Shown: positions 4,425-13,721, counted from the first letter of the stretch. The stretch: 64,000 nucleotides of DNA from a virus (IMGVR_UViG_3300009128_001633:1-64000); one strand, 5' to 3'. Numbers and translations: made by a program. The notes: generated by a model not told the origin, from the sequence alone.

Positions 4425-4871
4425 ATGCCAAACGGACACAGAAAAAGACCATTGAGTGAATTCGGAAAACATGATTATGCAGATCATGGAACATCAAGCT
4501 GTAAATATGGATGCGGATGTTGGGCGGGGTCAACCATGTCAGGTGGTCCAGTCGGAATAGACCCATTCGGACAATGTCATGAAAATGTACCCGACGAGAG
4601 CCGTGACACAGACTATGAAGATCTCGTAAACGGACGTATTGATAAACTTGAATCTGAAGTGTATAGACTTAAAGAATTTGAAGAGATAGTTATCAAAAGT
4701 AGAGAAAATTCAAAGGTTAATTTAGTTCAGGAAAACAGCGAAATTAGATCAAAAATAAATAGGTTGTCACATTTTATACATAATACATTTAAAGAAATTG
4801 ATACACTTAGTGACAAACATGATAAACTAAGGAAGGAAATTATGGAGCATGAAGAAGACAACAGTGGTTAA
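4425..4871 (+). CDS. Hypothetical protein (Cys/His N-terminus plus coiled coil)
   Basis: AGGAGG RBS; CKYGCGC motif. Confidence 0.7.
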   Translation: MPNGHRKRPLSEFGKHDYADHGTSSCKYGCGCWAGSTMSGGPVGIDPFGQCHENVPDESRDTDYEDLVNGRIDKLESEVYRLKEFEEIVIKSRENSKVNLVQENSEIRSKINRLSHFIHNTFKEIDTLSDKHDKLRKEIMEHEEDNSG

Positions 4872-5151
4872 CTGTAAAAGAGAAGAATACGATATATTAA
4901 TAGATAGAAAAACACCATATGGTAATCCATTCGTAGTTGGAAAAGATGGAGATCGCAAAACAGTTATTAAAAAACACAAAGATTGGTTATCAGGTAAAAA
5001 ATTTAAGAAGTTCTTGCAAAAAAGAAGAAAATATGTCTTACAACGAATACCATTAATGCAAGGAGAACGCTTAGGATGATGGTGTGACCCATCGCCGTGT
5101 CACGGTGATACGTATGCTGAGTTAGCAGATGCATATAAGGAGAAGGAATAA
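4849..5151 (+). CDS. DUF4326-family protein with in-frame TGA (candidate selenocysteine) at 5077-5079
   Basis: N-terminal YDILIDR.TPYGNPF..GKDG.R is DUF4326-like. Reading through TGA gives LG*WCDPSPCHGDTYAELA, matching the family motif LGCWC.P..CHGD.L. TAA at 5149-5151 lies 2 nt before the next ATG. Confidence 0.75.
5091..5109 (+). promoter_or_regulatory. Candidate bacterial SECIS hairpin
   Basis: ATCGCCG-TGTCA-CGGTGAT stem-loop with a GU-containing loop, starting 11 nt after the TGA; GC-rich in an AT-rich genome. Confidence 0.6.
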
Positions 5152-9155: not shown

Positions 9156-11840
9156 ATGAAGTCAAAGGAGATGAATAAGATAATACATGAAAATACAGAC
9201 ATAATAATAACTAAAATAAGTAAAAGAAAAGGAGATGAATTTGCATTAGCTAAATCAAGCATTGGAAATTTATTTATATACGATGCCAAATACACTTTTA
9301 GAGAATTAAAAGAAACCAACATACCAATCCATGTCTATAATAGCATTCCAGATGGAAGAATAAAAATAATTTTCATCTGGAATGCTAAACCATATCTAGT
9401 TAACATAGAAGACATTATAACAAAACCCAGAATAAATAGAAAATTAAAGTTAGCAATATTTCCAGTTCAACTTTCCCGTCTTAAACTCCTCAAAAAACAA
9501 GAACAACCAAAAAATCAAACCAAATTTATACACACGCATGTCCATACAGATCATAGTTTAATTGATGGAATCAGTACATGCATTTCTTATGTAAATAAAG
9601 CAAAAAACTTAGGAATGCCAGCAATAGCAATAACTGATCATGGTAATATTTCTGCACATCTATATTTGCAGTTAGAAGCAGAAAAATTAGGAATAAAACC
9701 AATATTTGGCGTAGAGGCATATGTTGTTCAAGATGCAACAATACACGATAGTGATCACAGATCTAACAACCATATAGTTTTATTAGCTAAGAATAAAACT
9801 GGATATAAAAACATTTTGACACTACAAAAACTATCTTGGTCCCCAGAAAACTTCTATTACAGACCAAGAATAGGTTATAAAACTCTCAAAAAATATCATA
9901 AAGGTTTAATTGCTTTAACTGCATGTATTAAAGGTTTGATGGGCTTAGACATCTTAAATGGAGAGCTCAGCGTGGCATATAGGACAGCCAAATGGTTAAA
10001 AAAAGTTTTTGGTGATGACCTATACTTGGAAATACAATTACATAATATATTTGATAATCAGGGTAATGATCTCCAAAAAATATATAACAAAGAGTTAATA
10101 AAAATGTCTAGAAAATTAGACATAGAACTTGTATTAACAAATGATGTGCATTATGCAGATAAGGGTATGCACAAAGTACAAGAAAAAGTAATTAAAATGA
10201 AAAGTGATTCTGATCTCGCGGATGCGTATTGTAGATCAATATGGTTTAAGAGTTTAAAAGAGTTAACAGAAACAAGAAAAAATGAGTGTAGTTATATAAA
10301 AATTCCAACATTCAAGAAAGCTGTCTCAAATACACTTAAAATAGCAGATAAATGTAATTATAAAATACCAACAGGAGGCCTTAGAATACCATCCATAGAC
10401 ATAAGTGAATTTCCTGGACATAAATCGTGGATGACCGAAGAAGATTATTTAACACATAGAATAAAAAAAGGAATAAGAAAAAGAGTAAAAGAAAACAAGA
10501 AAAAATTAACATCAGAATATAGTGAACGTATAAAAATAGAAATGAATGCATTTATTAAAATGAAAGTTATATCGTACATATTAATATATGATGATTTAGT
10601 ACGTTTTTTAAAGAAAAAAGGATGCCTCTGCTCATTAAGAGGTTCTGCAAATGGAAGCATTGTTCTATGGTTAATAGGATTGTCAATAGTTGATCCTATA
10701 AAGTTTAATATTTTGTTTGAAAGATTCATTAGCCCTGCAAGAATAGAGGCTGAAATGGCAGACATAGATATTGACCTTGATATTTCACATGAATATAGAG
10801 ATGTAGCTATTAACTATTTAAAAGAAAAATATGGCGAAGATCATATATGTATAGTTGGTACATTTGGTAGAACACAACTAAAAGCTTCTGTTAAAAACAT
10901 GGCAAGAGTTGAGGCAATTAAAATCAAGAAGCGTATTGATAAAACAAGAACAAAAACTAAAATTAAAAAACTAGAGAAAAAACTAGAACAATTCTCATAT
11001 AAAGAAATAAATAAAGTTACAAAACTTATGCCATTGGAATTTGATAAACTAAAAGATTCATCTGTATCTGATTGGTATAAAAAAAATAAAAAGTGGTTAA
11101 AGAAATACATAAAACCGATATTGGGCAACGTGTATTCAGAATCATTACATCCTGCCGGAATAGTAATTTCGCCAGAACCATATCATGAGTGGCTTCCTGT
11201 GAGAACAAACAAGCTTTCACAGGCAAAAGGTGGGCATAGGGTATTCGCCACACAATGGGAAAACTCACACACAAGTGTAGAACATCTAAATGAACGTGGT
11301 GTGATGGTTATGGATATATTAGGTGTGAAAACCTTAACAATCGTCGATGAAACTCTCAAACTAATAAAGAAAAGACACGGTGAGAAATTGAAGCTTGAAG
11401 CAATACCACTTAATAACAGAAAGACTTACAAAACATTATCAAAAGGTGAAAACCTTGGTATATTTCAACTGAGTGAAGGATTTTTAAAACCAATATTAAG
11501 ACAAACAAAACCAGACAATATAGAGGATATAATATTCATGGTTGCCGCAGATCGCCCAGGACCTATGGCATCCGGTGCGTTCGACCATTATGCAAAAAGA
11601 AAACATGGTAAGGAAAAAGTTAAGGTCCCACACCCATCTATGAAGATAGTGTTAAAAGATACTCTTGGTGTACTAACATACAGTGAACATGTTATGAGAA
11701 CAGCAACCTTTTTCGCAGGAATGGATCCAATTGATTCTGAAAAAATGAGGAAAGTTGTTAAGTCAAAAAATCCTGCAGATTTTATAAAATTTAAAGAAAA
11801 GTTTATTTCAGGAGCAATAAAAAAATGGACAAAAAAATAA
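9156..11840 (+). CDS. dnaE: DNA polymerase III alpha, N-terminal piece (PHP, palm, thumb, part of fingers)
   Basis: HTHVHTDHSLIDG, AITDHG, TNDVHY, RGSANGS, FERFISPAR, DIDID, HPAGIVIS, DILGVKTL, RPGPM; ends FISGAIKKWTKK*. Confidence 0.95.
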   Translation: MKSKEMNKIIHENTDIIITKISKRKGDEFALAKSSIGNLFIYDAKYTFRELKETNIPIHVYNSIPDGRIKIIFIWNAKPYLVNIEDIITKPRINRKLKLAIFPVQLSRLKLLKKQEQPKNQTKFIHTHVHTDHSLIDGISTCISYVNKAKNLGMPAIAITDHGNISAHLYLQLEAEKLGIKPIFGVEAYVVQDATIHDSDHRSNNHIVLLAKNKTGYKNILTLQKLSWSPENFYYRPRIGYKTLKKYHKGLIALTACIKGLMGLDILNGELSVAYRTAKWLKKVFGDDLYLEIQLHNIFDNQGNDLQKIYNKELIKMSRKLDIELVLTNDVHYADKGMHKVQEKVIKMKSDSDLADAYCRSIWFKSLKELTETRKNECSYIKIPTFKKAVSNTLKIADKCNYKIPTGGLRIPSIDISEFPGHKSWMTEEDYLTHRIKKGIRKRVKENKKKLTSEYSERIKIEMNAFIKMKVISYILIYDDLVRFLKKKGCLCSLRGSANGSIVLWLIGLSIVDPIKFNILFERFISPARIEAEMADIDIDLDISHEYRDVAINYLKEKYGEDHICIVGTFGRTQLKASVKNMARVEAIKIKKRIDKTRTKTKIKKLEKKLEQFSYKEINKVTKLMPLEFDKLKDSSVSDWYKKNKKWLKKYIKPILGNVYSESLHPAGIVISPEPYHEWLPVRTNKLSQAKGGHRVFATQWENSHTSVEHLNERGVMVMDILGVKTLTIVDETLKLIKKRHGEKLKLEAIPLNNRKTYKTLSKGENLGIFQLSEGFLKPILRQTKPDNIEDIIFMVAADRPGPMASGAFDHYAKRKHGKEKVKVPHPSMKIVLKDTLGVLTYSEHVMRTATFFAGMDPIDSEKMRKVVKSKNPADFIKFKEKFISGAIKKWTKK

Positions 11841-12208
11841 TAAGAACACCAATTGCCAAAATTAAAAGAACACCTTATCTAAAGAAAACAAAGAATAGAT
11901 GGTTTAAGAAAAATCTTGTAACTATGAAAGGTGGTTATGACATATGGAAATGCACAGAGTGCGGATACGAAGAAAAAACTATTCTAAATAGAAAATGTGA
12001 TTGCCCAGAATGTTCAAAAAAAGATTTGAAAGGAAAACCACTTGGATGGTGGAGAACAATTTCATCAAAAAACAAAAGGTGTCCAAAATGCAAAAGGAAA
12101 GGAAAAGTTGTTCCTAAAAAAGGACATCCTCTAAGTGCTTATTGGATTGAACAAATTAGAAACGATGAATCGTTGATGTGCTGTACGCACAAATGTCTTG
12201 AGTCATAA
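11825..12208 (+). CDS. Cys-rich zinc-ribbon protein inserted within dnaE
   Basis: CTEC, CPEC, CPKC and CCTHKC motifs. Confidence 0.7.
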   Translation: MDKKIIRTPIAKIKRTPYLKKTKNRWFKKNLVTMKGGYDIWKCTECGYEEKTILNRKCDCPECSKKDLKGKPLGWWRTISSKNKRCPKCKRKGKVVPKKGHPLSAYWIEQIRNDESLMCCTHKCLES

Positions 12209-12220
12209 GGAGGTGGTAAG

Positions 12221-12478
12221 ATGTTAGTAACTTTTTTTAAAAATGACAAACAAATATTTCAATTAAAAACAGATCTTGTTCCAGCAAAAAATGAAATTGT
12301 TAGTTTTATAAATAACAATAATAGAATAACATATGAAGTTATTAACTGTGAAAACGTATACGAAGTTATAAAACAAGGAGAAGTTCATGTGATAACATCT
12401 TGTAATATTTCTGTAATAGAAATAGCTAATCAACCTGAAAAGGAGAAACGTAATGACAATATATCTAATGAAGTGTAA
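12221..12478 (+). CDS. Hypothetical protein inserted within dnaE
   Basis: AAGGAGGT RBS. Confidence 0.7.
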   Translation: MLVTFFKNDKQIFQLKTDLVPAKNEIVSFINNNNRITYEVINCENVYEVIKQGEVHVITSCNISVIEIANQPEKEKRNDNISNEV

Positions 12479-12722
12479 AGAATGCAAATCAATAAAAAAT
12501 ATAGGTAGCAATGGAATGATAAACATTGTTACACAAAAGGAAGATATTTTTAAAGAAGAGTGGGTATGCAAGGAATGCTGGCCTGAATCAATTTCTGATT
12601 GGGAATATTATCACAAAGTAACAAAAGAAGAAAAAACAACAACAAGAAAAAATCCAGCTGAAATAATTAGGACACAAGAAGAATTAACAATGTCAGTACA
12701 TGATGACATTGAAGGAGAATAG
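12453..12722 (+). CDS. Zinc-finger-like protein inserted within dnaE
   Basis: AAGGAG RBS; CKEC...CKEC. Confidence 0.7.
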   Translation: MTIYLMKCKECKSIKNIGSNGMINIVTQKEDIFKEEWVCKECWPESISDWEYYHKVTKEEKTTTRKNPAEIIRTQEELTMSVHDDIEGE

Positions 12723-12724
12723 TA

Positions 12725-12823
12725 ATGGATCAAAATGGATATGGAACACCAGATGAAATAAGGAGGATTGCGGAAAGCGTATGGGAGGAAATGATGGGTT
12801 TCTCCAAATACGCTTTCCCGTAA
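12725..12823 (+). CDS. dnaE: DNA polymerase III alpha, 32-aa middle piece (not in the ORF track)
   Basis: AAGGAG RBS 7 nt upstream. MDQNGYGTPDEIRRIAESVWEEMMGFSKYAFP* is the otherwise missing NGY...A..IW..M..F..Y.F segment of DnaE. Confidence 0.85.
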   Translation: MDQNGYGTPDEIRRIAESVWEEMMGFSKYAFP

Positions 12824-12828
12824 AAAAA

Positions 12829-13680
12829 ATGAAAGCTCACGCCACATCTTACGCTATTCTAGCAAATGCAACACAATTCTTAAAAGTAAAGTATCCTATA
12901 GAATTTTTCTGTTCACATCTCCAACAAGCTGTTGATGAAAATTATAATCTAATCAAAAATGTTGCAAAAAGAAAATATGGTGTAAAATTTTATATGCCAG
13001 AGATAAATAAATCATCTGATAAGTTTACTATATATGACAATAAAATAGTATGGTCACTATCAAGTATGAAAGGAGTAGGCTTAAAAGCTGCAAAAGAAAT
13101 TATATCAAAGCAACCATTTACAAGCTTTCATGACTTCTTTGAAAGAATTAACAAAAGAATTGTCAATATAAAAGTTGTAAAAGTTCTAATAATAGCAAAT
13201 GTATTTAGGGAATTTGGAAAAAGAAACAGAATAGCAAAAATATATGGTAAACTTAGAAAAGACAAAGAATATCTAAAAATGACTAAAGAAGAATGGGAAT
13301 TAGAAGCAAGTAAGGTAATGACTTATTTCAAACAATCTGTAAGAGACTTATTTCCAACTAAAACAAAGTCTGCCATAACGTATGAAGAATTTTCAGAAGC
13401 AAAAATTGGGAAGAGGGTCATAGTAGCAGGAATAATAGAAAACTATCGTGAAATAAACAGTAAACGTGGTATGATGATTTTAATGAAAGTCTCTGACTCT
13501 GGAGAAAATTTTGCAATTGTTTGTTGGAACAATTTTTATAATAGACTATCTGAAAACGGAATAAAATTAGATAATGGATTAGCAGTAAGGGTTTCTGGTT
13601 ATAAAAACCTCTCTAACTTAGAAGAAGAACAAATAACACTTGGCAGAGAATCAGGTGCATATGTGAAAGTATTAACATAA
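12829..13680 (+). CDS. dnaE: DNA polymerase III alpha, C-terminal piece (fingers end, HhH, OB fold)
   Basis: MKAHATSYAIL...FLKVKYPIEFF, PEINKS, LSSMKGVG, PFTSFHDF, OB fold VIVAGII. Confidence 0.92.
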   Translation: MKAHATSYAILANATQFLKVKYPIEFFCSHLQQAVDENYNLIKNVAKRKYGVKFYMPEINKSSDKFTIYDNKIVWSLSSMKGVGLKAAKEIISKQPFTSFHDFFERINKRIVNIKVVKVLIIANVFREFGKRNRIAKIYGKLRKDKEYLKMTKEEWELEASKVMTYFKQSVRDLFPTKTKSAITYEEFSEAKIGKRVIVAGIIENYREINSKRGMMILMKVSDSGENFAIVCWNNFYNRLSENGIKLDNGLAVRVSGYKNLSNLEEEQITLGRESGAYVKVLT

Positions 13681-13690
13681 AATGTACTTT

Positions 13691-13721
13691 TTTATTATAA
13701 CTTTATATCTGATTTTGTATA
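13691..13721 (+). promoter_or_regulatory. Putative phage promoter TTTATTATAA-N14-TTGTATA
   Basis: The same two boxes with the same spacing occur on the - strand at 45231-45261. Confidence 0.55.

Follow-up and report, generated by a model that had tools for sequence, protein, structure and literature searches.

How might a virus replicate its DNA with a polymerase whose gene is interrupted twice, the second time inside an invariant motif of the enzyme, when neither interruption carries an intein? The question is raised by dnaE, the gene for a C-family replicative DNA polymerase, in the virus IMGVR_UViG_3300009128_001633. We analysed a stretch of 64,000 nucleotides (nt; IMGVR_UViG_3300009128_001633:1-64000, hereafter the window), the first 64 kb of a 95,856-nt IMG/VR virus record that is linear, ~69% complete and ~31% G+C; the public contigs matching it come from marine metagenome runs of a single study. 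A first-pass annotation, made from the sequence of the window, had described a DnaE encoded in three pieces, one of 32 amino acids (aa), and had suggested that they form a non-covalent heterotrimer. We find the three pieces where they had been placed, and an intein-less polymerase of three non-covalently held chains is our best and, we think, probable reading of the window. What is unusual about the locus is its second junction, together with the 32-aa chain that precedes it and the recurrence of the break in relatives with four different inserts.

The three pieces make up a colinear and complete DnaE

Piece 1 (9156-11840, on the plus strand, as are the other parts of the locus) encodes 894 aa that comprise an N-terminal extension, the PHP domain, the palm with its catalytic aspartates and most of the fingers; its C-terminus is ...GAIKKWTKK, followed by TAA TAA. 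Piece 2 (12725-12823) encodes 32 aa, a helical segment of the fingers whose C-terminus, YAFP, opens the Y-x-F-[NP]-K-x-H motif and makes up half of it. As had been described, it has its own AAGGAG ribosome-binding site; this site (12712-12717) lies 7 nt 5' of the ATG. Piece 3 (12829-13680; 283 aa) starts M-KAHATSYAIL; it completes the fingers and adds the HhH beta-binding domain and an OB fold. The Pfam domains of DnaE are found in colinear order and all above their cut-offs, the OB fold excepted: PHP (PF02811, 2e-42), the pol3-alpha core (PF07733, 2e-48) and the finger domain (PF17657, 2e-46) in piece 1, and HHH_6 (PF14579, 4e-18) with the OB fold (23.5 bits, below the cut-off of 27) in piece 3.

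Compared with the solved E. coli alpha subunit, piece 1 matches residues 3-733 and piece 3 matches residues 758-894, so that ~24 residues remain for piece 2. The unsplit DnaE of a related phage, L003, reads GAIKTWEHEPGIERRAARIWEALMGFSQYAFPKGH through both junctions with no extra residues, and that of a second relative, L006, is equivalent. Because these unsplit proteins run through both junctions and because ~24 residues are left for piece 2, we conclude that no part of the enzyme is absent from the three pieces and that they leave no residues over that could belong to an intein, which bears out the earlier claim that they are colinear and complete. D536, D538 and D720 of piece 1, in the palm motifs DIDID and MDILG, are invariant in the family alignment, in keeping with the claim that the catalytic motifs are intact; we take them to be the equivalents of E. 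coli D401, D403 and D555.

The absence of an intein, also claimed at first, is confirmed by the end-to-end alignment of the pieces with L003 and L006, in which there is no Hint block. A split intein capable of trans-splicing would consist of an N-intein block of ~100 aa and a C-intein of ~35 aa that ends in HN or SN, with Cys, Ser or Thr at the +1 position. Here there are at most ~8 extra residues at junction 1 and a single Met at junction 2, and the +1 position is taken by Asp (or Gln) at the first junction and by Lys at the second; split-intein trans-splicing was therefore rejected. Genuine split-intein C parts, as in the phage loci L104 and L107, have quite another appearance.

The two gaps differ in kind. 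At junction 2, an 11-nt micro-insert, TAAAAAAAATG (12821-12831), consists of the piece 2 stop, an A-run and the piece 3 start; the length first reported, which includes both TAA and ATG, holds. Deleted in silico, the micro-insert leaves an exact YAFPKAH, and intact relatives show TTY CCN AAR GCN CAY at this place. The gap at junction 1 had been given as 890 nt and treated as a spacer; it is 884 nt between stop and ATG, and is filled by three same-strand open reading frames (ORFs) of 127, 85 and 89 aa.

Both junctions are reproduced in independently assembled reads, at a depth of about 3. Logan contigs of two runs span the piece 1 stop, and one contig (covering 12739-13020) spans junction 2 with zero differences; the support comprises three DNA contig sets of one marine study, the best of which is possibly the window's own source sample, and no RNA run containing the locus was listed among the sequencing runs searched. 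The exact 32-aa piece 2 and a one-residue variant are also present on other Joint Genome Institute (JGI) contigs. An intact second polymerase, which the first-pass annotation had named as evidence that would count against a working split enzyme, was not found: the 95.8-kb record, ~69% complete, yielded no second DnaE and no family A or family B polymerase.

The pieces are conserved, and the model of the complex resembles intact DnaE

Neutral evolution of the pieces had been proposed as a check on the function of the split gene. The ratio of nonsynonymous to synonymous substitution rates (dN/dS) between the window and its relative L002 is 0.12 for piece 1, 0.29 for piece 2 (32 codons) and 0.15 for piece 3, rough values since dS is saturated, and that of the unsplit pair L003-L006 is 0.13, with dS likewise saturated. 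In the piece 3 tree, the end branches of lineages broken at junction 2 are no longer than those of their sisters (0.33 for L004 and 0.33 for P0006). Within piece 2, A16, W20, Y29, F31 and P32 are invariant across 7 relatives. The pieces are thus under purifying selection, the broken lineages resembling the unsplit pair.

Modelling of the three chains together had also been called for. Piece 2 modelled against piece 1 (residues 430-894) plus piece 3 scored 0.63, when the best of three controls scored 0.02, and reached a mark that is attained by 58 of 80 solved complexes and by 2 of 110 mismatched pairs. The runs shared at least 86% of their contacts, the predicted local distance difference test (pLDDT) value of the partners was at least 74, and piece 2 was docked against the final helix of piece 1, formed by residues 880-893. 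Because structures of intact DnaE have been solved, this pass may stem from structures that the model has already learned, and we read it as a likeness to intact DnaE rather than as binding.

Junction 2 is broken between the same two codons in four lineages

The basic form of DnaE in this family is a two-piece enzyme: most relatives encode pieces 2 and 3 together, as one ORF that in most members of the clade reads ...YAFPK[AGS]H.... In four lineages, which belong to at least two clades, this ORF is broken exactly between the Pro and Lys codons, and each of the inserts begins with a stop codon. That of the window is 11 nt long and places piece 3 in the -1 frame. In L002, the insert is TAGCTC (6 nt), which leaves piece 3 in frame with no start codon before KAH; a second assembly, L005, is 100% identical to L002 over 1,975 nt. 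In L004 (the same contig as L010), the insert is TAATGTAAGG (10 nt), piece 3 is in the +1 frame, and the nearest in-frame ATG lies 36 nt upstream. The fourth lineage is represented by P0158, a 296-aa protein called from M-KGH on an 11.7-kb contig that is not present in IMG/VR, and by P0015, from another contig (963 nt), whose called start is an ATG further upstream and whose sequence begins MPSRKKM-KGH. The PSR of P0015 is the +1-frame reading of A-F-P-stop (GCC TTC CCG T..; compare VSR in L004), and so the insert must be one base shorter than that of the window: as deduced from the proteins, it is T-AAR-AAR-ATG, the window insert minus one base (10 nt), which shifts piece 3 into the +1 frame.

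In the piece 3 tree, L004 is sister to P0006, in which junction 2 is intact (support 100/99), and the window, L002, P0158, P0003 and P0005 form a group whose order is not settled. For piece 1, the closest relative of the window is L012 (73%), in which junction 2 is again intact. Since the nearest relatives are intact, the break either had two or more origins between the same two codons or was precisely lost several times. The window and the P0158 lineage have diverged to ~57% amino-acid identity in piece 3, and a comparison of its first 100 residues with the rest gave no clear excess of identity that would point to gene conversion between this pair.

Two further features of these loci may be recorded here. 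A perfect AAGGAG(G) lies inside piece 2 ~50 nt before the break in 3 of 3 broken loci verified in DNA (window 12760-12766, L002:9710-9716, L004:6030-6036), with weaker versions at the same codons in intact relatives, and may be due to chance. In L004, a mini-ORF ATG GAT AAA TAA (M-D-K-stop; L004:5985-6000) overlaps the start of piece 2 through TAATG; it looks like the relic of an older start, MDK being the usual N-terminus of piece 2 in other lineages.

A proposed three-chain polymerase and its alternatives

How, then, is piece 3 produced? In the three-chain reading, which we infer for the window, ribosomes would end the 32-aa piece 2 at its TAA and restart 5 nt further on at ATG 12829, and the enzyme would be built from chains of 894, 32 and 283 aa that assemble non-covalently. 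To judge from the sequence, piece 3 most likely initiates at this ATG, probably by termination-reinitiation. The window and the P0158 lineage both have a stop, an A-run and an ATG directly before the Lys codon; as the one-base difference in the A-run flips the frame (-1 versus +1) and the ATG is nevertheless kept, an independent start is favoured over -1 frameshifting. No plus-strand terminator was found between the pieces. The gene caller had chosen another in-frame ATG (12781-12783), 14 nt after AAGGAGG (12760-12766), which gives a 299-aa protein (P0001) with 16 additional residues that overlap piece 2; the equivalent of this ATG is out of the piece 3 frame in the P0015 and L004 lineages, and it is therefore not a conserved start.

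Several observations weigh against this account. ATG 12829 has no Shine-Dalgarno sequence, so that its use would depend on coupling to termination of piece 2. In L002, a TAG stands in frame and no start precedes KAH, and L004 has no adjacent start, so that a single restart rule fails to cover all four lineages; leaky termination at Pro-TAG-C in L002, or initiation at the upstream ATG in L004, are our guesses. The insert of the P0015/P0158 lineage is deduced from protein sequences in two frames. The interrupted motif presumably lines the deoxynucleoside triphosphate site, and a chain break inside it could be damaging. Finally, with the record ~69% complete, a second polymerase could lie on the missing part, and the window ORFs in the junction 1 gap match no HNH, GIY-YIG, LAGLIDADG or Vsr family.

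An alternative is that recoding joins pieces 2 and 3 into one chain, so that the enzyme would be two-chained as in the relatives; the event would be a -1 shift on T_TTC_CCG in the window (giving YAFP-VKKM-KAH), readthrough of TAG in L002 and a +1 event in L004. This heptamer (12814-12820), directly 5' of the stop, has the formal X_XXY_YYZ pattern, and piece 3 of the window is indeed in the -1 frame. Termination is inefficient at a stop that comes directly after a Pro codon, and gene ends of this kind are avoided in the genome (0 of 72 ORFs); in L002, moreover, readthrough seems to be needed, since the in-frame TAG is followed by no possible start. Nevertheless, the frame relation varies from lineage to lineage (-1, +1, +1 and 0), so that no single event fits, and the -1 frame of L004 reaches a TAA after two codons. 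The predicted RNA fold at junction 2 does not exceed shuffled sequence in stability (z = 0.01), and the invariant motif would be lengthened by 2-4 residues in the product. Recoding would also leave unexplained why the ATG before Lys is kept in both the window and P0158 despite the flip in frame. We consider recoding unlikely, and the heptamer probably incidental: the heptamer and the -1 frame occur together in the window alone, with no stimulator structure, and programmed -1 frameshifting was rejected. An altered genetic code was likewise rejected, since long ORFs of both the window and L002 terminate at each of TAA, TAG and TGA, and ARAGORN detected no tRNA or suppressor in the window or in the whole 95.8-kb record.

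It is distinctly unlikely, in our judgement, that the inserts are inactivating lesions in a dying dnaE tail, replication being left to the host Pol III or to a polymerase encoded on the missing part of the genome. Metagenomes do hold defective genomes, this record is ~69% complete, and in L002 and L004 there is no evident route to a piece 3 that starts from KAH. A decaying tail would hardly be expected, however, to retain a piece 3 of 281-295 codons free of stops and frameshifts in four lineages, with dN/dS values and branch lengths in line with those of unsplit and junction-2-intact relatives. The insert type shared by the window and P0158 at ~57% amino-acid identity indicates that the insert is old and that piece 3 has been conserved since, and the same junction is seen in independent assemblies (L002 and L005; for the window, contigs of two further runs).

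That an RNA or protein joining reaction, such as the removal of a tiny intron, ligation or a bypass of the T4 gene 60 type, yields an exact YAFPKAH is very improbable. It would account for the fact that exact excision of each insert (6, 10, 10 or 11 nt) restores the invariant motif, and each insert is stop-first right behind the last sense codon, as in gene 60. GCUUUC and GAAAGC on either side of the window insert can pair, but this pairing follows from the Phe and Lys codons and is found in intact relatives too. There is no Rfam intron, inserts of 6-11 nt are too short for a group I, group II or bulge-helix-bulge intron, and the bases before the Lys codon (ATG, AGG or CTC) provide no landing codon to match a take-off at CCG or CCT. 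Protein joining fares no better, with no intein residues, Lys at +1 and no Hint block. Direct searches led to the same result: Rfam cmscan over 11000-13700, at E-values up to 10, returned no intron or other RNA family (chance snoRNA-like matches apart). Group I and II introns were rejected for both gaps, the first consisting of three ORFs with their own ribosome-binding sites and the second of 11 nt, and a bulge-helix-bulge mini-intron on size. The unknown joining mechanism entertained in the first-pass annotation thus finds nothing in its favour, even if decoding in L002 and L004 falls outside the restart rule all the same.

An assembly or sequencing artefact, for which the A8 homopolymer in the insert and a public-run depth of about 3 might speak, can be dismissed as extremely improbable: the stop precedes the A-run, so that no change in run length could remove it, Logan contigs reproduce both junctions, further JGI contigs carry the exact 32-aa piece 2, and three other lineages from other samples have the same inter-codon break.

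Junction 1 is a shared slot for cargo genes

Junction 1, which follows GAIKKW, is split in at least 12 related metagenomic phage lineages; searches with piece 3 identified L002, L004, L008, L009, L011, L012 and P0003-P0009 as members. Unsplit dnaE genes are those of L003 and L006 and of a more distant group, L013-L034. The locus has what is expected of an intein-less fractured gene, with same-strand genes between colinear halves, unsplit homologues and conservation of both halves. Compared with its relatives, dnaE is the only fragmented gene, the other syntenic genes having no multi-frame breaks.

The cargo differs between members. In the L002 gap there is an HNH endonuclease gene with a nucleotide-kinase-like gene, L008 and L011 have GIY-YIG genes, and endonuclease genes are confined to the gaps of these three; the L004 gap contains about nine small ORFs and that of L012 a single one. 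In the window, ORF A (11825-12208; 127 aa) overlaps the end of piece 1 by 16 nt and has four CxxC pairs in a zinc-ribbon-like arrangement; no family was found for it in Pfam, PHROGs or the ESM Atlas, zinc-ribbon matches being sub-threshold, and it shows no likeness to the L002 HNH protein. ORF B (12221-12478; 85 aa) has its own GGAGG ribosome-binding site and could be assigned to no family. ORF C (12453-12722; 89 aa), with two CxxC pairs, is zinc-ribbon-like as well and again without an assignable family; it stops 2 nt before the piece 2 ATG and is the only window gap ORF with a counterpart, the single 65-aa ORF of the L012 gap (45% identity over 49 aa). No remnants of the L002 HNH gene were found in the gaps of the window and L004. 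We conclude that junction 1 is an old landing site for mobile and accessory genes across a clade of marine and environmental phages.

L003 and L006 nest inside the junction-1-split clade at support values of 84/92 and 81/74, which are weak. If this nesting is true, their dnaE genes were re-fused after loss of the cargo, a 'hit and run' of the kind described for Aeromonas phages with a MobA element. In L008, an ORF that we judge by eye to be dCMP-deaminase-like (L008:28-492) lies beside the GIY-YIG gene, on the 5' side of piece 2. As it is the first ORF on the contig, piece 1 is unseen and placement in junction 1 is assumed; if the placement is true, the slot collects genes of nucleotide metabolism too.

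Gene neighbourhood

The three pieces belong to a plus-strand replication module with the order thymidylate-synthase-like gene, dnaE, HD-domain gene, HU-like gene and recA, which is syntenic with that of several uncultured phages. Elsewhere in the window, an in-frame TGA (5077-5079, in the ORF region 4849-5151) coincides with the first Cys in a motif of the type LG[C]WC.P..CHGD. The reading frame stays open for 23 more codons; besides dnaE, the phage has here another gene that is interrupted by a stop.

Relation to known split genes and to homing

Split DnaE inteins of cyanobacteria (Ssp, Npu) break the protein in the same Y-x-F-[NP]-K-x-H motif as junction 2. This site had at first been equated with the break; in fact it lies three residues upstream of junction 2. 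Two IMG/VR viral contigs (L104:4900-5010 and L107:4900-5010) carry an apparent split-intein C fragment, ...VYDIGL..HNF...ASN, followed by CFNK, which is the cyanobacterial DnaE split-intein site. Inteins in L043 (3650-3800) and L117 (4900-5000) end ...HN directly before SHS, and in L049 (1750-1900) an intein C-terminus precedes CQWLKVHY, a further insertion site in phage dnaE. Junction 2, between P and K, is thus three residues after the CFNK intein site and one residue before the SHS site, and has no intein of its own. In the dnaE genes of phages, mobile elements insert preferentially in this motif.

Three systems invite comparison. In the 'fractured genes' of marine metagenomes, three dnaE loci among them, a split intein is combined with a free-standing endonuclease gene (Dassa et al. 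2009, PMC2677866). Habitat, host gene and the order N-piece, endonuclease gene, C-piece are alike; here, in contrast, intein halves are absent from both junctions, which makes trans-splicing impossible. The nrdA-a/mobE/nrdA-b locus of Aeromonas phage Aeh1, a case of 'genes in pieces', is likewise split by a free-standing endonuclease without intein or intron, and experiments showed that the pieces of its ribonucleotide reductase come together without covalent joining and are active (Crona et al. 2011, PMC3045599). The present case differs in its three pieces with a micro-subunit, in the enzyme concerned and in that it is known from genes alone.

The closest parallel is the gene 39/mobA/gene 60 cassette of T4. 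As set out in two accounts (bioRxiv 10.1101/2022.08.31.505936; PMC5009743), a slot with an HNH endonuclease gene splits the topoisomerase gene, a stop-first insert of 50 nt lies after codon 46 of the downstream fragment, and relatives either lack the endonuclease or have a GIY-YIG or Vsr gene in its stead. The gene 60 insert disrupts the MobA target and so protects the DNA of the host of the cassette (PMC5009743, citing Bonocora et al. 2011, PMC3182709). In both systems, the gene of an essential replication enzyme is split by a free-standing HNH slot (here that of L002), and a stop-first insert interrupts a highly conserved stretch early in the downstream fragment, after codons 31-34 in the present case. 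In both, there are relatives that have lost the endonuclease or carry GIY-YIG instead, and relatives that look re-fused. The stop stands directly 3' of the would-be take-off codon here as well (CCG TAA in the window and L004, CCT TAG in L002). The two systems differ in the gene, which is dnaE and not a topoisomerase gene, in the length of the insert (6-11 nt and not 50 nt) and in the lack here of matched take-off and landing codons and of a conserved nascent-peptide signal. Ribosomes would deal with the window insert by stopping and starting afresh at its ATG, which yields a separate chain, and not by bypass. Bypass of the gene 60 type was rejected, as the inserts end in ATG, AGG and CTC whereas the take-off codons are CCG or CCT.

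Because of this T4-like layout, and because the HNH gene in the L002 slot is intact, we propose that the micro-inserts are target-disrupting insertions. By this analogy, the micro-insert may owe its origin, or its retention, to the disruption of a target site, that of a homing endonuclease housed in the junction 1 slot, a proposal that we think quite possible while leaning somewhat against it. The L002 HNH enzyme would then cut intact-site DNA near TTYCCNAARGCNCAY and spare DNA that bears an insert. The earlier suggestion that the break protects the phage from a homing element fits the layout and the gene 60 precedent, and we retain it at this tentative strength. A broader version, to which we would give a minor chance, is that the inserts between FP and K are endonuclease-immunity insertions that arise or spread time and again where the homing endonucleases of junction 1 have their target, each tolerated through a different and partly unconventional form of decoding: stop-restart with a 32-aa micro-subunit in the window, and short-range readthrough or bypass without a start or matched codons in L002 and L004. 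If true, 'gene 60-like' coding gaps would comprise two families that differ in mechanism.

Discussion

If the three chains are active together, a replicative polymerase that is cut inside an invariant motif still works, with a chain of 32 residues as an obligatory subunit; this would bear on how far the C-family polymerase fold tolerates fragmentation and on the designed splitting of polymerases. A cargo slot, followed ~32 codons further on by a stop-bearing micro-insert, repeats the gene 39/mobA/gene 60 cassette of T4 in another enzyme. Homing may therefore lead quite generally to coding gaps that confer immunity to an endonuclease, with ribosome bypass as one among several translational solutions. 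The four natural variants, with inserts of 11, 10, 10 and 6 nt and three frame relations, form a series in which termination-reinitiation can be set against recoding at Pro-stop sites.

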